From a virus (lineage: Duplodnaviria > Caudoviricetes), in IMG/VR virus record IMGVR_UViG_2671180233_000001, positions 1 to 64,000 of that record: a stretch of 64,000 nt of DNA; one strand, written 5' to 3'. The notes beneath the pieces were generated by a model that saw only the letters and a program-made list of their open reading frames with translations, was not told the origin of the DNA and searched no databases. The stretch's first letter is position 1; each line of letters begins with the position of its first letter. The translations under genes were made by a program, and so were the position numbers. Of this stretch, positions 6,419 to 34,909 are shown in pieces.

Positions 6419-7228
6419 TTACGCTTGGAATGTGCCGATCAGAACTTGTTGTTCTGGCAGTAAATCAATTACTTTTTGCTTAAATTCCTGGATAATTTCA
6501 TTTACCAAGATTTCTTCTTTCACAATCTGGATTGCGAAAATAGGCTCACCGCTACCGCCATTTACGATTAGGCGCAATTCGATTTCTTTTTTATCAAGAC
6601 CCACATAAGCGGTATCAGAAATTTTGAATTTTGCAGGGAGTTGGCCAAGTTTTGCTTTAGCAGCGATAGCAGTTTGTGCGGTGCGGACTTCACGGGTGTT
6701 TTCAACTTCTGCATCAGTCGATAAGTTGACATCTACTTTCATATTACGAACAGCAGTAATCGCATCTTTAATATCGATTTTATTGTCATCTGCATCAATC
6801 GCAGTCAACACAGTTGCCCAGTCTTCCAAAAAGGTTGCAAAGCGTTTTTGATCAAGCTTGGTGTCTTTAAGACCGGTTAATTTTTTCCAAACTACTGTTG
6901 GATCGAGTTGTAAAGTTGCAGTGTGGTCGCAATGGCCTTGGTCATAACCAACTTCGATGTAATTCAGCACAGCGACGGCTTTGACATCATCACGAGATAC
7001 AAAAACTGGTGTAGGTTGGTTTACTTTCGGATGATCAATGTATTGTGCAAAGTCTGCAAAAATTGGAGTGGCGAATTTGCCACGGATACGGTTACGGCCA
7101 TTTTGATACTGTTCTGCGTCCAAAATTTTGTAGTTTTGATGAACCGCTTGCAGGCTACCGCGCTCTACTTCCAGAACTGGATTGCAATGTTCAACAACTG
7201 CTGCAACTTCACTATTTTCTAATGACAT
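6419..7228 (-). CDS. DUF2303/YfdQ family phage protein
   Basis: RIRGKF, GHCDHTATL, QKRFATFLEDW and VLIGTF motifs; paired with the upstream small gene. Confidence 0.8.
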   Translation of the reverse strand: MSLENSEVAAVVEHCNPVLEVERGSLQAVHQNYKILDAEQYQNGRNRIRGKFATPIFADFAQYIDHPKVNQPTPVFVSRDDVKAVAVLNYIEVGYDQGHCDHTATLQLDPTVVWKKLTGLKDTKLDQKRFATFLEDWATVLTAIDADDNKIDIKDAITAVRNMKVDVNLSTDAEVENTREVRTAQTAIAAKAKLGQLPAKFKISDTAYVGLDKKEIELRLIVNGGSGEPIFAIQIVKEEILVNEIIQEFKQKVIDLLPEQQVLIGTFQA

Positions 7229-23604: not shown

Positions 23605-23799
23605 CTATTCCTTAAACGTCTCATACAAAGCCTGTTGAACAGCATCAACCCTTGATTTGCAGGCTTTATATGCTTGCATGGATTCTTCAACGATTTTCAT
23701 CAGGTTATCAATGTCTGGTTCTTCCTGAGATTCAAGTAGGGCAGCATTTTTCTTTAAAATTTCGTAGCCTTCTTTAAAAGTAAGTTCTTTATTGGTCAT
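23605..23799 (-). CDS. xseB: Exodeoxyribonuclease VII small subunit
   Basis: LTF.E.Y..L......LE pattern; coupled to xseA. Confidence 0.85.
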   Translation of the reverse strand: MTNKELTFKEGYEILKKNAALLESQEEPDIDNLMKIVEESMQAYKACKSRVDAVQQALYETFKE

Positions 23800-25069
23800 T
23801 GTCGATTACCTTGTTAACTGTTGCTTGGATCTGACCATCTTGCATTTCAATTGAAATATCAGTGCCAGAAATTTGGTGAATTGATCTGATAGCTTTGCCG
23901 TTACTGCGTACGATTCCATAGCCTTTTGCCAGTACATTTCTAGGATTCTGTAGTAGTGTTTCACGCATTAAGGATTCTACGTTGCTATTAGCGATTTTGA
24001 TCTGTTGCTGGGCAAAATAATGTGTCGTACCTTTCATCAACTCCAGGTTTTTGGTTGCCATTGAAATTTGATTTTGGACCACGGTTTTGATTGTACCGAT
24101 CAATTGCTCATTCTTATTCTGGTAATTGGCAATATGATGCTGGGAAAGTAACTTTATGGACTGTATGAAAGTAATGACTTCCTGAGCACGATCAGCGATT
24201 TGATTGCGTATACCGGCAATTACCTTGCTGGGCGTGTCGAAAGAGCGATGTGCAATTTCATCTAATATTGTCCGGTCTTTCTCATGACCAATGCCGACCC
24301 AGATTGGCACAGTTCGTTTGCACAATAAAGCGGCAAGGTCATAGTCATTCAGATACGCCAAATCATTGACTGCACCGCCTCCGCGAATAATCACAATCAG
24401 GTCTGGTGGTGTACCATCATAATCTTTTACCCATTGGCGCAAGCCCGAGCTTAAGGACTCAATAATGCTGACAGCAGCTGTATTGCCTTGAAATGTGGCG
24501 GAATGATATACGAAATGACACACACCGGCTTTATCTAAAGCATCAGCATCTTTTTTGAAATCACCCAAGCCGGCGGCATTTTGTGGAGCAATGACCAAGA
24601 CATTTTGAATATCAAATGGGACAGGGAGAAGCTTATTTTTATTAATTAAACCTTCTTCCGTCAATCGAGCGACAATTTGCTGGTATCGTTTTGCAATATC
24701 GCCGAGTGTAAAACTGGAATCGATGTCCTCAATATTAAGTGAAAATCCATATTGTGGGTCAAATCGTGCTTTGACTTTAATGAGAACGTTCAAATCTTTG
24801 GATAATTCAATACCGCTTTCACGTTGAAATCTTAAAACAATCTTACTTGTATGTTTCCAGATCGTTGCCCTACAACTTGCAATAACCTTATCTGTATCTT
24901 CTTCTTTTTCTGCTAATTCCAGATAATAATGTCCACCTTTTACACTTAGATTCCGGATCTCGGCTTTAACCCATACAGCTTCATCAAATGAAATCTGAAT
25001 GACTTCCTTAATCGCGCTAAGGTATTCAGTTAATGAGAGTTGTTGATCTGGCATGTGTGTTGATGGCAT
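23789..25069 (-). CDS. xseA: Exodeoxyribonuclease VII large subunit
   Basis: OB-fold GHYYLEL, IIRGGG, GIGHEKD, TPS and LAKGY motifs. Confidence 0.95.
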   Translation of the reverse strand: MPSTHMPDQQLSLTEYLSAIKEVIQISFDEAVWVKAEIRNLSVKGGHYYLELAEKEEDTDKVIASCRATIWKHTSKIVLRFQRESGIELSKDLNVLIKVKARFDPQYGFSLNIEDIDSSFTLGDIAKRYQQIVARLTEEGLINKNKLLPVPFDIQNVLVIAPQNAAGLGDFKKDADALDKAGVCHFVYHSATFQGNTAAVSIIESLSSGLRQWVKDYDGTPPDLIVIIRGGGAVNDLAYLNDYDLAALLCKRTVPIWVGIGHEKDRTILDEIAHRSFDTPSKVIAGIRNQIADRAQEVITFIQSIKLLSQHHIANYQNKNEQLIGTIKTVVQNQISMATKNLELMKGTTHYFAQQQIKIANSNVESLMRETLLQNPRNVLAKGYGIVRSNGKAIRSIHQISGTDISIEMQDGQIQATVNKVIDNDQ

Positions 25070-25197: not shown

Positions 25198-27260
25198 TGC
25201 CTTTTATGGCTATAGGTGATAGTGGTTTACAATATGATAACCAAGGCTTTCTGATTGGTGCGGTTCAGCAAAAAGTTGAAACTATTGATAAGAATATTCT
25301 GGAAATCTTAAAGCTGCTTAGGCATGACACAGTAGAACAAACACAGCGATTTAAGATTAGCCGGTTGCAGCGTGCGATGTATGAAGCTAACTCGGCTAAG
25401 AACATTGAAGATATTATAAAAGATGCAACACAAATATTAGAAAATCAGTCTAAACAACAGATCAAAGCCATTTCTAATATGGACTCATCTAAATCTGATC
25501 AAATTGATCCAGTCCGAAATAATACTAATCAAACTAAACCTGTGGAATCAACAAGAGACAATACTCAACAGTCTGATAGAAAAAGGGACAGTAACGGTCG
25601 TTTTGTTGCTGGTGATGTTCCTGAGAGTGATGAAACTGTAGACAAACGCAATCGTGATGATAAAGGGCGATTTGTCCCTGGCACCTCAACAACAATTTCA
25701 AAGTTTGGCGATATAGTTGGGAAATTTGGACAGGCAGTATCTGGATTAGGTACAGATGCACAAGGTTTTGATCCAACGGTTGATGCAATAAATGAACTAG
25801 GTACCGTTTTGTCGCCAGTTAAACGAATGGCTGGAATAGTATTTAAGCCTTTGACCGGTTTGGCGAAGATGCGTAAACGTTCTGAACCATTGCCGAAAGA
25901 GCAAACTGATCATAATAAGAAACAACTTAAGATTTTGCAGCGTATCGCAGATCGCACGGGCAATAATCAGGGTGGCTTATTATCCAAACTATTGGGATCG
26001 GGTGGTGGTTTACTTGGCGGATTGTTGGGTAAAGGAGGAAAAGTATTATCCAAGATATTAAAGTTTGGTAAAGGATTACCAATTGTTGGTGGATTGCTCA
26101 GTGCCATAAGTTTGATGGATTGGGGGGATAAATCTACTGAACAGAAAGGAGGTGCAATAGGCTCTATTGGGGGCGGTGTTGTTGGAGGTGTTTTAGGATC
26201 GGTTCTTGGTCCAGCCGGTACAATTGTAGGTGCTGGTGTTGGTGCTTGGATTGGTGACAAGCTGGGAACAACAGTTGCACCTTATTTCAAGAATTGGACT
26301 GATTCTTTGATCAAATCAGATTTAGGTCAAAAAATCGTATCTATCTGGGATGGATTTGTAGATACAATTTCTGGGTGGTTTGATAAGGCTTGGGGCGGAC
26401 TAAAATCTGGTGCTGGTGCAATTGGAGGTATGTTTAATGGTGCCTGGCAAACTGTTAAAAATATAGGCAATAAAGGACTGGATACCATTGGATTTAATGA
26501 CTATAAGGCTCTAGAGGGAGGAAATGCCCAAGAAAAGACCATGGCTTTATTGAGACAACATGAAGGTTTTCGTGAAAAAGCATATTGGGATGTGAATGCA
26601 TATCGAACTGGTTATGGCAGTGATACTGTAACAGATAAGAATGGAAATGTTCGTAAAGTTACTTCTAATACAAAGGTTTCTAGGGAAGATGCTGAGAGAG
26701 ACTTGTTAAGACGTTCAAAAATTTTTGCAGCCCAAGCAAGGCGTAAAGTTGGTGGTGAAAATTGGGATAAGCTACCAGATGATGCGAAAGCAGCTTTGAC
26801 TTCGGTTGCCTACAATTACGGAAGTTTGCCAAAAAGTGTTACTAAAGCTGTTCAAACTGGGGACTTAAAAAGAATTTCTAACTCTGTTCAATCTCTAGGT
26901 GCACATAATAAAGGCATTAATAGAAAAAGACGTAACCACGAGTCTTTATTGATTCATAATGCTAAAGATAGTTCTGTTTCTACATCTCAAGTTCAGCATG
27001 GTTTATTGGCATCGACAAATAAAACAAATACTCCATTTGTTGCAAAGGCAGATACTATGCTTGCGACTGCTAACCCAGTAAATTTGAATAACCATACAGC
27101 TAAAGCAAATACACCTAAGATTGAAACAGCCAAAACTAGATTAAATTCTACCGATCCACAAAAAGTATTGGTGGTAAATCAGTCAGATGGTAGTATTACC
27201 CAAAATTTAGGCGATCGTGCTTTAGCACACGCAATTACAGGGGGAATTGGGGAAAGATGA
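25197..27260 (+). CDS. Tape-measure-like virion protein with lysozyme domain
   Basis: Gly-rich TM-like tract; HEGFREKAYWD...TGYG and AYNYG lysozyme motifs; two RDxxGRF motifs. Confidence 0.75.
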   Translation: MPFMAIGDSGLQYDNQGFLIGAVQQKVETIDKNILEILKLLRHDTVEQTQRFKISRLQRAMYEANSAKNIEDIIKDATQILENQSKQQIKAISNMDSSKSDQIDPVRNNTNQTKPVESTRDNTQQSDRKRDSNGRFVAGDVPESDETVDKRNRDDKGRFVPGTSTTISKFGDIVGKFGQAVSGLGTDAQGFDPTVDAINELGTVLSPVKRMAGIVFKPLTGLAKMRKRSEPLPKEQTDHNKKQLKILQRIADRTGNNQGGLLSKLLGSGGGLLGGLLGKGGKVLSKILKFGKGLPIVGGLLSAISLMDWGDKSTEQKGGAIGSIGGGVVGGVLGSVLGPAGTIVGAGVGAWIGDKLGTTVAPYFKNWTDSLIKSDLGQKIVSIWDGFVDTISGWFDKAWGGLKSGAGAIGGMFNGAWQTVKNIGNKGLDTIGFNDYKALEGGNAQEKTMALLRQHEGFREKAYWDVNAYRTGYGSDTVTDKNGNVRKVTSNTKVSREDAERDLLRRSKIFAAQARRKVGGENWDKLPDDAKAALTSVAYNYGSLPKSVTKAVQTGDLKRISNSVQSLGAHNKGINRKRRNHESLLIHNAKDSSVSTSQVQHGLLASTNKTNTPFVAKADTMLATANPVNLNNHTAKANTPKIETAKTRLNSTDPQKVLVVNQSDGSITQNLGDRALAHAITGGIGER

Positions 27261-28174
27261 ATAAAAAAATACTTTTAGGTTTGATATTGGGTTGCTTAAA
27301 TTCATTTGCGGTTGGGAGCTCAAATGATATTGACCAGAGATTTTATAATAATATTTTATCAAATTTAGATAATCCATATAGAATCATTACAATCAAAAAA
27401 GAATCTTTAAACAATGTTGAAAGAACTGTAATAAATTATGCTATTCGGAACTTTAAAAAGGATTTTGTAGAGTGTAATGGTAAATCATATATTCGTGGTA
27501 TAGATAAGGTTTATTATGTTGTTGATTATAAGCCAACAATTTTATTTCGAACATTTCCTACAATCAATAAAGCTGATAAGTTGAATGGCGTGGTGTGGCG
27601 CGGGGATATATTAATATTCTTATCAGGTAATAAAGGAGAAGGAGTAGCCCAAGAAGTAAAAGCTACCGATCATCAGTCTTCTAAATGGCAAGATATGAAT
27701 AGACTTAGGTTGAGTCAATTTGGAAATTTTGAAGATGTGTATAGAGGAACCTTAGTTTTTTATAAAAATGAAATACGTACATATTATGGGGATGGGATAG
27801 GTAACACTAAATCTAATGATAATAATCAGTTGGTATGTTCAGATATTAATCAACTACTGATGCCTGAGCAAAAGCATGAAACTAATATTGAAAGTGAAAA
27901 AAAATTAAATTTGGATGGTAAAGTCAGCTGGAGAACTTACCCAAAAATAAGGCTTTCTCAGCCAGATTTATTAGGCGTAACAAACAGTAATGTGATAGTT
28001 CGTGTTGATGTTGACGTAAAGGGGCGAATAAGTGCAAAAATTCTTGAAACCAGTGGCGATGATCAGGTTGATAAAAAAATTGTAAAAGCTGTTGAGGCTG
28101 CAAAATTTAATAAATACACTGAAAATGGAGAGCCTGCAGCATTTTATATAGAATTACCATTTAATTTAAGTTAA
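27257..28174 (+). CDS. Exported protein with C-terminal TonB-C domain (moron)
   Basis: Signal peptide; V.VDVKGRI...ILETSG...VD.....AV..A.F...LPF motif. Confidence 0.75.
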   Translation: MNKKILLGLILGCLNSFAVGSSNDIDQRFYNNILSNLDNPYRIITIKKESLNNVERTVINYAIRNFKKDFVECNGKSYIRGIDKVYYVVDYKPTILFRTFPTINKADKLNGVVWRGDILIFLSGNKGEGVAQEVKATDHQSSKWQDMNRLRLSQFGNFEDVYRGTLVFYKNEIRTYYGDGIGNTKSNDNNQLVCSDINQLLMPEQKHETNIESEKKLNLDGKVSWRTYPKIRLSQPDLLGVTNSNVIVRVDVDVKGRISAKILETSGDDQVDKKIVKAVEAAKFNKYTENGEPAAFYIELPFNLS

Positions 28175-28340
28175 GAGATGGCAAAGCAATAACCTAGCTT
28201 AAAACTGATGTTTGATTGAAGCTGGAAAATCAGTTTCAAGCCAAAATTTCATTGCTAAGAGTGGATATGTTAAATTTGAGGATTCATTTATTAATTAAGA
28301 GAAAGTTATCTTGGTTTAGTCACTCAGAAAACTCTTAGTT

Positions 28341-28475
28341 TTGTTATAATATAGTAATTTTAAATTTCTAGCTTTATTTTTTCAATTACAAATAAAATAG
28401 CAGGTAGGCAAACCATTCCCGCTTAGTCGCTGTTAAAAAGCTAGAAATTTAAACCTATGGGATATCCACAGGTGC
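28341..28475 (+). promoter_or_regulatory. Extended -10 promoter (TGTTATAAT) followed by a structured leader with a perfect 17-bp stem
   Basis: TTTAAATTTCTAGCTTT (28359-28375) and AAAGCTAGAAATTTAAA (28437-28453). Confidence 0.6.
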
Positions 28476-28494
28476 AATTTTGATAGGGTGTTAA

Positions 28495-29514
28495 ATGACT
28501 TCTGAAAGCAATAGAACCGGATCTCTTGGAACGAACTATGTGGAGAAAGTCCTACTCAAATGGGGATGGGGATTTCAACCTATTTCACAAGAAAATGATG
28601 ATGGATTTGACGGCATTATATATATCCGATCGAAACATTCGAATCCAAAAGATCCTGAGAATCAAAGTAAGCAATCATGGGCTTTCACAGGTGGGTTAAT
28701 TCATGTACAAGTGAAAAGTGGAAATAGCTATATCAGTAGCCAAAATAGAAACGAGATAAAACTTAAGATAAATAAACTAGCTCAAAAGAAAGAAATATGG
28801 AAAAAATCTCCAATTCCATGTGTTCTAATATTTTTTTTTGAAGATGAAAATGAGAATGAATATTCATATTGGGCTGATCTAAAATCAAATGAATCATATT
28901 TTGAGGGTAGTAGTAGCATTATCAGTATCCCCAAAAAAAATAGATTTTCAAAATCACCAGAATGCAAAGGTCCTTTAAGACGCATAGCAAGGAAACAAGG
29001 GGATTATAGTGATAAACATTTGATTGATATGGTAAAATCAGATACCTTAAATAGTATTTTGCCATCAAGTCTTAAAGGGAATATAAACTCCTCTTTAAAA
29101 AGCAAAGCTATTGAGTTTTACCAAAAATGGAAATTGAATGGTGCAATTAACCCTTACTTTGGTCAAGTAATAATTAACAGGACCGGATGGAGTCATATCA
29201 CTCGCAAAGGCCGCCCTATAGCAAGAATTGAAGCCAGTTTTAATTTGTTACCTATTGCAGCTAGAATTATAAATGATGTATCCACATGGCGTATGCTAAC
29301 GCCCATGAGAAGATATCAAAATAGAAAGGATGGTTATGTTTGTTATACAGATTTTATTGGATTAACAGCAAAGGTTGTTTTAAGAATGAGAAATTCCACC
29401 GAAGTTATGGTTGTATTAAAAAGAGAAACAAGATTCAAAGAAAGCGAAGGTGAAAATGATCCTGAAACCAGACTCTGGTTTTATACAGTTTACGAGCCAG
29501 GACGTGGGAAGTAA
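28495..29514 (+). CDS. DUF4365 (PD-(D/E)XK-like) domain fused to an LPD3/BECR RNase-like domain
   Basis: ENDDGFDGII...HVQVKSG at the N-terminus; GQVIINRTGWSHI...LLP...WFYTVY at the C-terminus. Confidence 0.7.
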   Translation: MTSESNRTGSLGTNYVEKVLLKWGWGFQPISQENDDGFDGIIYIRSKHSNPKDPENQSKQSWAFTGGLIHVQVKSGNSYISSQNRNEIKLKINKLAQKKEIWKKSPIPCVLIFFFEDENENEYSYWADLKSNESYFEGSSSIISIPKKNRFSKSPECKGPLRRIARKQGDYSDKHLIDMVKSDTLNSILPSSLKGNINSSLKSKAIEFYQKWKLNGAINPYFGQVIINRTGWSHITRKGRPIARIEASFNLLPIAARIINDVSTWRMLTPMRRYQNRKDGYVCYTDFIGLTAKVVLRMRNSTEVMVVLKRETRFKESEGENDPETRLWFYTVYEPGRGK

Positions 29515-29515
29515 A

Positions 29516-29617
29516 TTGCGGCGGTACAATCGCGCTCAGACTGCCCCAGACGTGATATATAATCACCGGTACCAGAAAAGGTCTGGCTCCTCTATTGTGC
29601 GTGTACCGCCTTTGCAA
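29516..29617. ncRNA. Candidate ~100-nt structured RNA directly after the stop codon
   Basis: GGCGGTACA/TGTACCGCC closing stem with two internal hairpins; minus-strand TTGACA-16-TATTAT promoter points into it. Confidence 0.55.
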
Positions 29618-29707
29618 ATAATACTATAAAACTCTAAAGTGTCAATGAGTTAATTTGATTATCAAAGGTTTAAGTGGTGGTGAAAATCCACCAACCACAC
29701 CAAATTT

Positions 29708-29737
29708 AAAGTCCGTACTCATATGCGGGCTTTTTTA
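29708..29737 (+). terminator. Intrinsic terminator
   Basis: AAAGTCCGTA-CTCA-TATGCGGGCTTTTTT. Confidence 0.65.
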
Positions 29738-29903
29738 TTATTGGAAAAAGGAATTTAGGCTTTTAAATGGTTGAAAGATATTTCTTGAGTCCAGTTAAAA
29801 ACATCTAATATTTCGTGTTATTTCACTGAAATTTATATAATATAAAGTTCAAATATTTAGATATTTTACAAATTTTCATTTAAAAACGTATAGTGAGATA
29901 GTT

Positions 29904-30368
29904 GTGAAAATAAAATTAGATTGGCAAGAGCCATTGCAATTAGGTTCTTTTACAGATGATGTAAATTACCATGATGAATTGGAGTTAAATGAGATTCCAG
30001 AATCAGCAGGCATATATATTTTTTATCGTCAGCATGGTGAAACTCAACAAGCATTGTATGTTGGTCAGGCACAAAATTTAAGAAGCCGATTAAAACAACA
30101 ATTTAAGTCTTTAGAGTTAATGAAACACATCAAAAATTCTAAAAAAGGTTCAAAACACCTTGTTTTTGCATTATTAAAAACTCGTTCATCAAATTTAGTG
30201 CATGCTTTAAATCAGGCAGAGCGTGGACTTATTACACATTATATGGAAGAAAATAAACATGATTTATTTAATAAACGTGGTCTTTATGAAGAATATGATT
30301 TAGTAGAATCCATAGGAGAAAATGTACAGCCTCTTATAAACATTGAACTATGGGTCTACGCTAAATAA
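29904..30368 (+). CDS. Stand-alone GIY-YIG nuclease family protein
   Basis: GIYIF...YVGQAQNLRSRL...AE...FN. Confidence 0.85.
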   Translation: MKIKLDWQEPLQLGSFTDDVNYHDELELNEIPESAGIYIFYRQHGETQQALYVGQAQNLRSRLKQQFKSLELMKHIKNSKKGSKHLVFALLKTRSSNLVHALNQAERGLITHYMEENKHDLFNKRGLYEEYDLVESIGENVQPLINIELWVYAK

Positions 30369-30420
30369 CTTTTCAGCAGTTTGACATTTCGTTGTGGAAT
30401 ATTCTGTAAATGATCAGACT

Positions 30421-30488
30421 TGGAACTCAACACATTCAATCCAAATCAAAGCCTATAAAGTTAAAACTTCTTTAACGATATAGGCTTT
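30421..30488 (+). promoter_or_regulatory. Late promoter element 2 (TGGAAC-N29-TAAAGT) with RBS hairpin
   Basis: AAAGCCTATA (30448-30457) and TATAGGCTTT (30479-30488). Confidence 0.75.
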
Positions 30489-30492
30489 ATTA

Positions 30493-30969
30493 ATGTCTAA
30501 AAACACTGAAAATCAAATTCCAGATACCAGCTATGCTGTAATTGATATTATTGGAGAACCTTCAAATTTATCTGTACAGCATCTTGTTGCAATTTCAGAT
30601 AATGAACTCACCACAGAACAAGAAGATCAATTAAGAAATGGCCAGTCCATTGATAATGTTTTCAGCTATCCACCTGGTTACTACTACACAATCACACCTG
30701 ATTTAGAAGCACAGGATTTTGATCATGAGCGTTACTTTGAAACTCATCTGCATTTTCAGGATGGATCGGTACCAGTAGAAGGTATTAACGGTTTGACGAA
30801 TGAAGCCTTGCTTGAAGTTTTGATTCACCGGATGAATATTTTGGATGCTAAATTTCCGTGTAAAGAGAATAAAATTGCTTTGAAACATATGCAGTTGGCG
30901 TTATCAGCGTTCAAAGATCGTTCACTCTCACGTAAACTTCGAGGAGTAGAGGGTAAAAATGTCATCTAA
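30493..30969 (+). CDS. tad1: Tad1-like anti-Thoeris/anti-CBASS nucleotide sponge with acidic N-terminal extension
   Basis: HFQDG...GLTNEALLEVLIHR...FPCKEN.IAL.H...AL.....R...R..RGVEG resembles the Tad1 pattern. Confidence 0.75.
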   Translation: MSKNTENQIPDTSYAVIDIIGEPSNLSVQHLVAISDNELTTEQEDQLRNGQSIDNVFSYPPGYYYTITPDLEAQDFDHERYFETHLHFQDGSVPVEGINGLTNEALLEVLIHRMNILDAKFPCKENKIALKHMQLALSAFKDRSLSRKLRGVEGKNVI

Positions 30970-31166
30970 AATAGTGAAAATCTATTGCTATAAGCACCAC
31001 AATGATCAGCAAATTGATCTTTAAACTGTTGAGTTCGTTGAAGTAGAAGATACAGAATATTGTGGTGGAATGATTACTGGGCGTGGTAAATATAATAAAG
31101 TAACCATCGGTTTTCAAAGCGGTAATAGCTTATTAATGATTATAGATAAGATGAAATTGCCTTTGC

Positions 31167-31234
31167 TGGAACTCAGCTCAAATTAACATTCCAATACAAA
31201 GCAAAATAGCCTCAATACATCGTTGGGGCTTTTT
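31167..31234 (+). promoter_or_regulatory. Late promoter element 3 (TGGAAC-N29-CAAAAT) with RBS hairpin
   Basis: AGCCTCAA/TTGGGGCT stem with a U-G pair. Confidence 0.75.
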
Positions 31235-31235
31235 C

Positions 31236-32156
31236 ATGTCTAAAGGACGAAAAACTAAAGTTTTACAATACAACCTACATAATCGGGGGCGTAAGCATAC
31301 AGGTGTGGACAGATCAAACATTGATTTTATGAGCATGATCAATTTGATTAATGCACCAAGCACTCAGGAAATGGTTAAGACAGGGCAATTGATCGGGTTC
31401 TATGGACATCAGATTCGACAACGTTTTGGTATGGTACCGCCTGAGAGCGTACCGATCAGTGGAAAGATGGTGCACCTTGAGCCTGCTTTCAGGACCATTG
31501 AAATCAAAGCTGATAAAGATGGTACTGTAAGTCATCGTGCGGAATTTTTGGAAAATGAATCTGGGGAATTTGCTCGCACGCAGTACCTTGCCAAAGTTGG
31601 CGGTTTTAGTACCGCTGTAAACTATCGCAAAACACCACCAAATAAACTTACACCAAGTGGCTTCTTCGGGTTTGATTATGTAACCCAGCCCAACTATGCC
31701 ACCAATGTTGGTGATGGTCAGTTATTTGATGGCCTATTTGTCCCTGAAGATCCGTCTAATAATCTGATTGCATGTTTTGATAGTGCAACTGATTTATCAG
31801 CACTAGAACCTTCACAGGCTTTAATTGCAAATATGCTTGAGCAGCAAATTATCAGCACTTTTGACAGTATCCATGCCCAAATTACCTTGGGGCAAATGAA
31901 CGAACAGGCACTTGATCAAATTGATGCATTGACTCAGCAAATCAGTTTGCATGAACGTAAAAAGCAATTACAGCAGCAACGTCAACAGGATCTTTACACA
32001 GGTATGGTTGGTGAAATTCGTACATTTGATAGTGCGCTTGCTGAAGCTGAACATTATTTAGAACAACTGGAAGGTAATTTAGTTCAGGACAATACAAAGC
32101 AGCGAGGAACTGGCCTTGTTAAAACTGTCCGTAAATTCTTAACATTCGGGGGATAA
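31236..32156 (+). CDS. Putative head-processing (prohead protease-like) protein
   Basis: GFYGH, GGFS and GFDYV..PNY fit the His/Ser/Asp layout of prohead proteases; inferred. Confidence 0.55.
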   Translation: MSKGRKTKVLQYNLHNRGRKHTGVDRSNIDFMSMINLINAPSTQEMVKTGQLIGFYGHQIRQRFGMVPPESVPISGKMVHLEPAFRTIEIKADKDGTVSHRAEFLENESGEFARTQYLAKVGGFSTAVNYRKTPPNKLTPSGFFGFDYVTQPNYATNVGDGQLFDGLFVPEDPSNNLIACFDSATDLSALEPSQALIANMLEQQIISTFDSIHAQITLGQMNEQALDQIDALTQQISLHERKKQLQQQRQQDLYTGMVGEIRTFDSALAEAEHYLEQLEGNLVQDNTKQRGTGLVKTVRKFLTFGG

Positions 32157-33986: not shown

Positions 33987-34316
33987 ATGTTAAATTTAAA
34001 AGACCTTATCTTTTTTTTATTATCAACAATATGTTTTTTTATTCTTCTTGTATTATTTGATTATTTTGAGTTAGTTCAAAGTTTAAATTTATTTCTAACA
34101 TCATTTATTTATAATTTGGTCAATATTTTATATGTGATTCAATTGAAAAAATCAAAATATTACTTTGTTTTAACAATTCCTTTTTTAATCTTAATTTTTA
34201 TATTGGGAAATATAAATGAAATATTCCTGATTTATACAGGAATATTTTTTTCATATATGTCAATTTTCTTATTAAAAAATGCTGATTTTTTAATAAGATT
34301 TAAAAAATTGGAGTAA
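33987..34316 (+). CDS. Small 4-TM membrane protein (moron)
   Basis: GGGAGG SD; strongly hydrophobic and AT-rich. Confidence 0.6.
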   Translation: MLNLKDLIFFLLSTICFFILLVLFDYFELVQSLNLFLTSFIYNLVNILYVIQLKKSKYYFVLTIPFLILIFILGNINEIFLIYTGIFFSYMSIFLLKNADFLIRFKKLE

Positions 34317-34770
34317 TACCACGGTTAAAAATGCCTTTTTTAAGACGCGAGCTTGATTCCTTTTGATTGACACATATTAAGTTTTCTAAAAATAATGGTA
34401 AAATTTTCAAATCTAATACCTGTGGATCAAATTTTTCGCTACCATTCTTTTTGAAGAACATATCGATATCTGAATTTTTGTCTACATATTTCATAGACCA
34501 CTTTTTAAAACTAAACTTTTCAATATGTGTTGTTTCCAAATGTTTTAAAGAGTGATGCCTAGGATCTTTTTTTATGCTTTCAAATAAGGATTCTATGTCA
34601 CTTTTATTACCTTCAAGACATTGAAAAAAGGAATTATCAGCATAATAAAGAACGCCATAAATTTTGTTTTCCGAGTTAAATTTACGGGCTACAGTAAGAA
34701 TATCGATGATATCTTCAATTAAGTTCTCATCTTCATTTCTTCTACTAGAATAGCAAAGTCTAGCTTTCAT
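34300..34770 (-). CDS. blsA: BLUF-domain blue-light photoreceptor, BlsA-like
   Basis: RLCYSS, AR.FN, GVLYY...FFQCLEG, DPRH and F..WSM; the flavin-coupled Tyr, Gln, Trp and Met are present; 156 aa from ATG 34770. Confidence 0.9.
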   Translation of the reverse strand: MKARLCYSSRRNEDENLIEDIIDILTVARKFNSENKIYGVLYYADNSFFQCLEGNKSDIESLFESIKKDPRHHSLKHLETTHIEKFSFKKWSMKYVDKNSDIDMFFKKNGSEKFDPQVLDLKILPLFLENLICVNQKESSSRLKKGIFNRGITPIF

Positions 34771-34846
34771 TGATTTCACATTAAATTTTCCAGGGGGGAT
34801 AATTAATGTAGCACAAACATTAATTTTATTTATATATTTTGATGTT

Positions 34847-34909
34847 TGGAACATCTTAAAATTTAATCTAATTCAAATGATTACCCTATAAATCAAAGTT
34901 TATAGGGTA
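34847..34909 (+). promoter_or_regulatory. Late promoter element 4 (TGGAAC-N29-TACCCT) with RBS hairpin
   Basis: Perfect 11-bp stem TACCCTATAAA/TTTATAGGGTA. Confidence 0.8.

Follow-up and report, generated by a model that had tools for sequence, protein, structure and literature searches.

What is a conserved fold of about 100 nucleotides (nt) doing directly behind the stop codon of a viral nuclease gene? The question is raised by an open reading frame (ORF), P0001, of 339 amino acids (aa; 28495-29514, plus strand, stop codon 29512-29514) in a stretch of 64,000 nt from a virus of the class Caudoviricetes (IMG/VR record IMGVR_UViG_2671180233_000001, positions 1 to 64,000). That whole stretch is referred to here as the window, and coordinates are those of the window unless another locus is named. 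P0001 joins a nuclease domain of the DREN/DUF4365 type to a conserved C-terminal domain. A preliminary description, drawn from the letters of the window, had pointed to a GC-rich fold of about 100 nt after its stop codon and had proposed a toxin kept in check by its own RNA. The fold is indeed better than that of shuffled sequences on both strands, and it turns out to be a conserved partner of the DUF4365 gene. What follows argues that it belongs to a small RNA transcribed towards the nuclease gene and moving with it as a unit; how such an RNA may act is weighed thereafter.

The RNA gene behind the stop codon

Loci were fetched from species genomes (19), metagenomes (42) and IMG/VR (12). A covariance model, R1, was made from 14 distant loci (clade B), with the window and its close relatives left out, and was searched over both strands of 62 sources (356,529 bases). 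It returned 30 matches, one per locus, each beginning a few bases beyond the stop codon and lying on the opposite strand to the ORF. These account for every locus (30 of 30) with a protein at least 39% identical and its 3' flank present; the other 32 sources are cut at or before the end of the gene, are small fragments or encode a protein at most 35% identical. The preliminary description had named the absence of conserved structure beside homologues, in advance, among the findings that together would refute its proposal; such structure is what was found, in all 30 eligible loci. In the window, R1 matches 29518-29612 on the minus strand with 50.2 bits (E 1.1e-12), and a second model, R2, finds a single copy in the window's whole genome (79.9 bits). 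The RNA is likewise present in nine of nine IMG/VR loci with a protein at least 43% identical and in all three of the E. coli and Salmonella loci, and the stretch after the stop codon is visibly alike even between loci whose proteins are about 40% identical. The RNA was not met without the gene in 150 other genomes of the genus (0 matches), and gene and RNA are both absent from the 60 relatives searched. A scan of IMG/VR for the RNA motif gave four places, namely one true RNA beside the gene, two weak ones that look like chance and one without a model match.

The predicted RNA occupies 29510-29612 on the minus strand (its ends are predictions) and is drawn as a three-way junction, in which three unpaired strands link the closing stem (P1 with P1b, 12 pairs) to the hairpins P2 and P3. 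P1 pairs its 5' arm (29602-29610) with its 3' arm (29520-29528); a small bulge separates it from the three pairs of P1b (29531-29533 with 29599-29601), which were placed from the alignment. Hairpin P2 (29571-29587) pairs 29582-29587 with 29571-29576, and hairpin P3 (29552-29566) pairs 29562-29566 with 29552-29556. The junction strand J3/1 (29534-29551), with its invariant or nearly invariant alignment columns, is the most conserved stretch of the locus, and J1/2 (29588-29598) is also unpaired and conserved; the RNA's variable parts are the short hairpin stems and the loops. The closing stem of the preliminary description (29520-29528/29602-29610) lies exactly where it had placed it, and the two inner hairpins that it had named are at 29552-29556/29562-29566 and 29572-29576/29582-29586. 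The GC content of the element is 0.50-0.52 in surroundings of 0.25-0.40. Folding 29510-29620 (111 nt) gives -38.7 kcal/mol on the plus strand (z -4.0, no shuffle out of 200 as good) and -38.9 kcal/mol on the minus strand (z -3.1, two of 200 as good). Rfam, searched over 26000-32000, has no match on the element at E<=1, its lone row being a sub-threshold Leu_leader on a terminator further along (29634-29736), and ARAGORN finds no tRNA or tmRNA on it.

Some pairings did not survive comparison. The alternative pairing of CCAGAC (29546) with GTCTGG (29581), also put forward in the preliminary description, is present in the window; the hairpin sequence differs in the other clade, where the pairing is not kept, and it was dropped as a feature of the family. 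Two mini-helices of 4 and 3 base pairs, which the single-sequence fold had placed within the junction, were dropped as well: by eye, the alignment has them disrupted in several loci and offers no more than one compensatory change.

Two alignments were set against this structure. The first, made with MAFFT and fitted to no structure, was tested against the structure as drawn by hand: 95.3% of its cells pair, 11 pairs are changed on both sides, and among 500 shuffles none reaches the observed value in four of five measures and one does so in the fifth, the slid controls pairing at 22-39%. The second, fitted to the model, contains all 30 R1 matches as 26 distinct rows. Here 95.1% of 638 cells pair, double changes are seen in 21 of 26 pairs (128 cells), the observed values in the five measures are reached by none of 500 shuffles, and the slid controls have 25-40% of their cells paired. 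The closing stem P1 with P1b has double changes in 9 of 12 pairs, with 98.7% of its cells paired (in the middle of P1b, 16 rows have an A-U pair and 10 a G-C pair); P2 has them in five of seven model pairs (88.7% paired) and P3 in all seven (94.6% paired). Judged from these alignments, the three helices of the RNA clearly covary.

The same pairs tell the strands apart. Read on the minus strand they include 56 G-U wobbles against 10 A-C mismatches, and on the plus strand the counts are swapped; in P3 of clade B, for example, the mismatches of the plus strand are G-U pairs on the minus strand. Thus the functional RNA is the minus-strand transcript and not a structure in the 3' untranslated region (UTR) of the mRNA. 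RNAalifold also favors the minus strand (-27.7 against -20.8). The selection is not confined to the helices. Across pairs of loci with 44% identity in protein and 56% in ORF DNA, identity in the 30 junction columns is 78%, and this greater conservation of the junction columns than of the ORF DNA fits their recognition by a partner.

A transcript from the minus strand would have a promoter of its own at 29618-29645, with its -35 box at 29645-29640, a 16-nt spacer, its -10 box at 29623-29618 and a predicted start near 29611. The preliminary description had noted this promoter, and it proves to be conserved at a fixed distance from the stem. Its sequence, TTGACA-16-TATTAT, matches 11 of 12 positions and is the best promoter-like site in 28150-29900, in a scan that yielded no excess of sites overall (eight against a shuffle mean of 8.4). 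The pattern TTGACN-16-TATNNT recurs in all nine clade-A loci, where the -10 box lies 7-8 nt from the foot of P1 (12 nt in a single locus), and 14 of the 17 loci outside clade A have, by eye, an extended -10 element of the form TGnTAnnnT that ends 8-10 nt before P1. A strict scripted test at fixed distance is passed by 15 of 26 loci and by 303 of 5200 shuffles (5.8%); judged partly by eye, a promoter stands at the fixed distance in 23 of the 26 distinct loci.

At its other end the RNA has a U-rich tail (29509-29519, minus strand, assigned from T counts) that follows P1 and overlaps the stop codon and the last codons of the ORF, which are often rich in those for Lys, Arg and Asn. At least five T lie in some 8-nt window within the 14 nt after P1 in 18 of 26 rows. 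To judge by its sequence, P1 together with this tail may serve as an intrinsic terminator that yields an RNA of about 100 nt. The earlier statement that the fold lacks a U tract is therefore true of the plus strand and not of the minus strand, which has this tail.

Folds of a comparable kind lie beside more distant members of the protein family. Minus-strand multibranch folds of about 100 nt, with a long closing stem and a U run, follow homologues that are 27-35% identical in the loci L025 (3892-3997, with six U), L057, L058, L059/L062 and L065. Some of the folds beside distant homologues carry a junction motif that resembles that of the main family, and one comes from a genome of the Bacteroidota. 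They are suggestive of what may be a diverged sister family of RNAs.

A different state is seen on an IncFIB plasmid of Salmonella enterica (L077; CP053577.1, 6001-7141), where codon 128 of the gene is a premature stop and the reading frame is disturbed towards the 3' end. The annotation has the 128 aa only, and a VapC/AbrB toxin-antitoxin pair lies just downstream. The partner RNA is intact there (7040-7141, 114 bits).

The nuclease and its C-terminal domain

A search of a set of 5.8 billion proteins found 91 relatives of P0001 with the same length and architecture, from sources that include Yersinia, Acinetobacter, Serratia, Enterobacter, Klebsiella, Citrobacter and Pseudomonas. The N-terminus MTSESNR is kept among these homologues. 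Residues 1-168 (28495-28998, plus strand) form the nuclease domain. Pfam PF14280 (DUF4365) matches residues 10-154 with E 3.6e-22 (79.3 bits against a cut-off of 24.3), and it matches 75 of 75 family members. In structure comparison by VIA, residues 1-167 align with the DREN chain 9qcc_Y of SPARDA (Z 17.8, root-mean-square deviation 2.4, 144 residues, 24% identity), with Hjc resolvases and I-Ssp6803I next in the ranking; Foldseek matches the domain to the DREN fold with E 2.8e-11. D39, Q72 and K74 are invariant, both in an alignment of 23 sequences and in one of 75. Mutation of the Q-x-K motif is described as inactivating the DUF4365 nuclease TmuRE (PMC10810196), whose Q62 and K64 are here equated with Q72 and K74 by motif position, not by residue-level superposition. 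On the evidence of sequence and predicted structure taken together, the N-terminal half of P0001 is a DREN-type PD-(D/E)XK nuclease with its fold and active-site residues intact, as the preliminary description had supposed in calling it PD-(D/E)XK-like. The isolated DREN of SPARDA is described as monomeric and inactive and as being switched on by tetramerization (PMC12205087).

Dedicated collections say little about the whole protein. PHROGs has no family for P0001, PADLOC gives it weak matches to Argonaute-associated and candidate models and no defined system, and a search of PDB sequences with the family profile returned no match.

Two observations concern individual members. Among the loci L017-L050, start codons are GTG or TTG in 13 of 15 loci of the Pseudomonas/Rahnella-type clade and ATG in eight of eight loci of the window's clade; the GTG and TTG starts may represent deliberately weak translation of a harmful protein. 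A 223-aa partial "BRCT-domain protein" from a Bacilli metagenome bin (P0066) is 79% identical to the C-terminal 44% of P0001, and it is probably a fragment or comes from a mis-binned contig.

The C-terminal domain (residues 170-339; 29002-29511, plus strand) is harder to place. Its predicted structure is an alpha/beta fold, and it is proposed as an RNA-binding or regulatory domain. Predicted alone, it reaches a predicted local distance difference test score (pLDDT) of 89. Foldseek, given the domain alone, finds no match at E<=0.001; Pfam has no family for this part of P0001, and the ESM Atlas offers no usable match. Its best VIA match among 48,161 chains is 6cp9_A, a CdiA-CT toxin, with Z 4.8. 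RelE, ParE or CdiA-CT chains make up about 10 of the top 50 VIA rows, all with Z below 5, for which 7-8 is the guideline separating matches from noise. LPD3 (PF18798) appears below threshold in two of 26 C-terminal domains, both from distant homologues (best E 0.002, 18.8 bits against 27), and in none of 75 full-length members at E<=0.1. The BECR/LPD3-like RNase region of the preliminary description is thus neither confirmed nor excluded by these weak signals, and its "dual nuclease" remains a guess. R229, W232, H234, T236, R240 and R244 are invariant in the domain. The invariant W-x-H-x-T...R...R block, with a C-terminal Y-E, would be compatible with a catalytic or an RNA-binding site.

A profile of the C-terminal domain retrieves 286 cluster representatives among 1.84 billion. 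Most of the 150 listed of these have the same architecture of about 300-350 aa, and the rest are shorter or longer. When 18 proteins of unusual length were scanned, other N-terminal domains came to light: TIR in three (P0203, P0206, P0212), SIR2 in one (P0211), CHAT in three (P0107, P0121, P0128) and EAD11 in one (P0106). Such fusions occur with or without a recognizable DUF4365 domain, and partners of these four kinds are typical of immune effectors. The loci of the TIR- and SIR2-fused relatives were sought in IMG/VR and none was found there, and the C-terminal domain is absent from all 400 other genomes sampled in the phylum.

How the RNA may act

How, then, might an RNA with conserved unpaired strands serve a nuclease? 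Our preferred reading, to which we would give about an even chance, is that the RNA binds the C-terminal domain and holds the nuclease off, by analogy with toxin-antitoxin and abortive-infection systems. Transcription of the RNA would begin at its own promoter and run towards the gene's 3' end; the C-terminal domain would bind the product, and the complex would keep the nuclease switched off. The RNA might then be lost or displaced, through a phage-induced shut-off of host transcription, through RNA decay or through loss of the element itself. Once the short-lived RNA was gone, nothing would keep the nuclease domains from assembling and degrading nucleic acids, and the outcome would be abortive infection or, alternatively, post-segregational killing and addiction to the prophage. 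RNA-protein binding, inhibition as the direction of control, toxicity and an anti-phage effect are all things that we infer. That a partner reads the unpaired bases is argued from the co-inheritance of RNA and gene, from selection on the junction that exceeds selection on the ORF, from selection on the fold and from the nature of the nuclease, which belongs to a type that is inert until assembled. The C-terminal domain is favored as the binder because the protein is the sole constant partner of the RNA and this domain is its only unexplained part.

Several points weigh against this reading. R2, run with default filters over the 22 loci of distant homologues (at most 35% identity), found no match, and with the filters off the lone suggestive row, the element directly after the stop codon in L025, is insignificant (10.6 bits, E 1.1). 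In L077 the gene is broken and the RNA intact, and the RNA can therefore persist without a working partner. Neither an RNA-binding nor an RNase fold was found for the C-terminal domain (best Z 4.8, no Pfam family, no PDB sequence match). The covariation counts overstate the independence of the changes, the sequences being related and one of the two alignments leaning towards the model, and no promoter motif can be recognized by eye in three of the 26 loci. The convergent layout fits pure antisense control as well, and the RNA could equally be an activator or a sensor as an inhibitor.

Antisense control, of the type I toxin-antitoxin or cis-antisense kind, is one such rival, and we consider it unlikely, though well worth weighing. 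It would involve no protein binding: the RNA would pair with the 3' UTR of the mRNA, or transcription from the two sides would collide, and the effect would be lower mRNA stability or read-through. The arrangement of the two genes is the one it calls for. An intrinsic terminator on the plus strand (29708-29733), which is probably that of the ORF's mRNA, lies beyond the RNA gene, so that the 3' UTR of the mRNA would carry the complement of the whole small RNA, and the weak GTG and TTG starts of many clade-B genes fit an expression that is tightly limited. Yet strands copied from the same DNA pair without any need for a conserved sequence, and the junction is conserved well beyond the ORF DNA (78% against 56%). 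The 56 G-U against 10 A-C pairs likewise speak for selection on the fold of the minus-strand RNA itself, a multibranched and tightly closed structure makes a poor antisense reagent, and the RNA appears to stop at the stop codon without overlapping the coding sequence. A reading at the level of DNA, with the element as a recombination site like the attC of integrons, as the end of a mobile element or as a terminator or insulator hairpin, strikes us as highly improbable. The element does lie directly after its ORF, as attC sites do, the module is mobile and often near integrases, and the DUF4365 defense gene Divona is described as an integron cassette (10.1101/2024.07.02.601686). Against these likenesses stand a three-way junction with long conserved unpaired strands, where an imperfect palindrome would be expected of attC; a fixed-distance promoter, counted partly by eye, in 23 of 26 loci; a U-rich tail in 18 of 26; and the strand bias of the G-U pairs. 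The settings, moreover, are prophages and not cassette arrays, and the plus strand has no U tract. The core consensus of attC is of the type GTTRRRY; by eye, no core of this type is seen at the ends of the element.

A third rival turns the sign of control around. The RNA would be a positive partner, and together with the C-terminal domain would make up the sensing half of an immune effector, needed for its activation or assembly, much as APAZ, short Argonaute and guide RNA serve DREN, TIR and SIR2 effectors. APAZ is described as joined to effectors of these three types (PMC12205087; 10.1101/366930). The C-terminal domain is fused to the same three, TIR, SIR2 and DUF4365/DREN, as well as to CHAT and EAD11, and the requirement of DREN for induced oligomerization also suits an activator. 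Opposed to this is the constancy of the RNA, whose conserved parts are alike from Acinetobacter to Pseudomonas hosts; being the same across hosts, they cannot constitute a programmable guide. We regard a positive role as rather doubtful, and the same must be said of the bolder proposal that can be built on it: that the C-terminal domain and the three-way-junction RNA together would form a new ribonucleoprotein switch, wired to interchangeable effectors (DREN, TIR, SIR2, CHAT protease), an Argonaute-free counterpart of the module made up of APAZ, short Argonaute and guide RNA, in which the RNA would be an infection sensor or licensing factor and not merely an antitoxin.

Setting, known relatives and significance

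When the window is compared with eight other loci, DNA similarity starts 0-50 nt upstream of the start codon in most (one exception starts 225 nt upstream; another, a locus truncated at its 5' end, starts within the ORF) and ends at 29609-29664, reaching at least 29645, the -35 box of the RNA promoter, in five. These limits define a conserved mobile unit of about 1.2 kb that consists of the ORF and the RNA gene, and the plus-strand terminator, which the preliminary description had rightly placed at 29708, is outside it. Phage genes flank the module in the window. Upstream lies an endolysin- or tail-lysin-like ORF and, further off, genes for a DNA methylase, RusA and a helix-turn-helix protein; downstream are a tail fiber gene, a terminase gene and other PHROG families. 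Of 5426 complete E. coli genomes, 22 have the module, each on the chromosome; the accession of the E. coli protein is WP_021537117.1. Two loci were inspected, and in both the module stands at the end of a lambdoid prophage, as its final gene, adjoining the integrase. No neighboring ORF is common to more than three of 26 loci except an integrase-like ORF, found in five. A tblastn search did not find the module in a phage genome collection, and the module is rare on plasmids. ORF and RNA are best explained as a module complete in itself, which spreads horizontally and which prophages and integrative elements carry as cargo. As far as sequence can indicate it, a role in defense or as a toxin is supported by several hallmarks: a prophage position beside an integrase, a rare and patchy occurrence, and the fusions of relatives to TIR, SIR2, CHAT and EAD11.

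The other end of the gene is less conserved. A 5' leader (28358-28475, plus strand) folds into a long-range stem of 16 base pairs (about 28360-28375 with 28437-28452), with a further hairpin just ahead of the ribosome-binding site; the stretch 28358-28500 folds with z -2.9, and an extended -10-like sequence, TGTTATAAT, was noted by eye at 28342-28350 (plus strand). Homologues mostly do not share the leader structure, which is local to this genome. The preliminary description had seen the gene as bracketed by structured RNAs; the downstream RNA is conserved, as described above, and the folded leader is not. By eye, L035 and L036 may also have a small hairpin ahead of the start codon. Autoregulation by way of junction motifs that mirror the first codons of the mRNA was considered and rejected: synonymous sites in those codons vary freely.

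Other genes of the window call for brief mention. Directly after the module lies a 154-aa ORF with a GIY-YIG nuclease domain (29904-30368, plus strand), which has no PADLOC or PHROG match and is not beside the module in other loci. A gene with a BLUF blue-light sensor domain (34300-34854, minus strand; E 5.9e-26) stands among phage-like genes on the strand opposite its neighbors. An xseA-like gene for the large subunit of exonuclease VII (23789-25069, minus strand) separates two blocks of phage-type genes; two separate regions of phage origin may accordingly be present in the window, or else a prophage that integrated beside xseA.

Type III toxin-antitoxin systems (ToxIN, CptIN, TenpIN) pair a protein with a structured RNA, and they share with the module an effector encoded beside its dedicated structured RNA, a mobile and phage-related setting, and the logic, proposed in the present case, of an RNA that holds a protein inactive. 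The differences are substantial. In type III systems the RNA lies upstream, on the same strand and in the same operon, whereas here it is downstream, convergent and provided with its own promoter. There it is a tandem array; here there is one R1 match per locus, in analyses that included no search aimed at tandem repeats. Their effector is a ToxN-type endoribonuclease, unlike the DREN PD-(D/E)XK nuclease with its C-terminal domain, and neither Pfam nor structure searches found an RNase family or fold for either domain of P0001.

In layout the module resembles type I pairs such as txpA/RatA of Bacillus subtilis, which have a convergent, 3'-overlapping antisense RNA. In both, transcription of a small RNA runs towards the 3' end of the protein's gene, and the RNA is the complement of the last part of the mRNA. 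The toxins of type I pairs are small hydrophobic membrane peptides, in contrast to a two-domain nuclease-type protein of 339 aa, and in the present module selection acts on the junction sequences and on the fold of the RNA itself.

Another comparison is with AbiF (Abi_2) of Clostridioides difficile, a prophage toxin described as neutralized by a structured RNA, RCd22, through direct binding (10.1101/2025.04.15.648962). A prophage-encoded protein with a structured RNA is common to both. According to that description, however, AbiF is an HEPN-like protein, its RNA is of the abiF-motif kind and the orientation of the two is different; the RNA of the present module has no Rfam match at E<=1.

SPARDA (PMC12205087, PMC10810196) has the same nuclease domain (Z 17.8, 24% identity, Q-x-K), it too has an RNA in the system, and activation by induced oligomerization is, from what is described of it, a plausible shared step. 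Here, unlike in SPARDA, no short Argonaute (MID-PIWI) is found among the window's neighbors or as a conserved gene across 26 loci, and the RNA is a fixed, genome-encoded structure and not a sampled guide. With the C-terminal domain as the query, no SPARDA or APAZ chain is among the VIA matches listed, and a missing match does not exclude that fold.

Nearest of all, and possibly identical, is Divona, described as a single-gene DUF4365 anti-phage cassette from a Vibrio cholerae integron, with E. coli homologues within 20 kb of integrases (10.1101/2024.07.02.601686). Divona also has an N-terminal DUF4365 and a second domain in a single protein gene, and the E. coli loci studied here are likewise near integrases. 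Its second domain is given as Crr6 (PF08847), and the available description mentions no RNA. PF08847 matches none of 75 members at E<=0.1 and none of 26 C-terminal domains at E<=1, and there is no named Vibrio protein among 122 profile matches. Were Divona a member of the family, there would already be experimental proof that the protein acts against phage, and what is new would be the RNA. The literature found on DUF4365, as far as its accessible text goes, describes neither a partner RNA nor a stand-alone architecture of this kind; none was found that names the accession of the E. coli protein, and that on related topics held nothing relevant beyond AbiF. What is new, then, is the RNA family and its pairing with the protein; the kind to which they belong, that of toxins and abortive-infection effectors partnered by RNA, is known.

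Few toxins and abortive-infection effectors are under RNA control (type III toxin-antitoxin systems, AbiF and those of the retron type), and each of them is informative about how infection is sensed. The module presented here, at about 1.2 kb, occurs in E. coli, Acinetobacter, Yersinia, Serratia, Klebsiella, Pseudomonas and others, and the catalogues would gain a new family of structured RNAs from it. The only studied relatives of its DREN nuclease need an Argonaute for switching on; the control of collateral nucleases of the DREN type would have, in this module, a second and independent solution. The module would also signal that a "single-gene" DUF4365 defense cassette may need a hidden RNA partner, which matters wherever such cassettes are cloned by the ORF alone.

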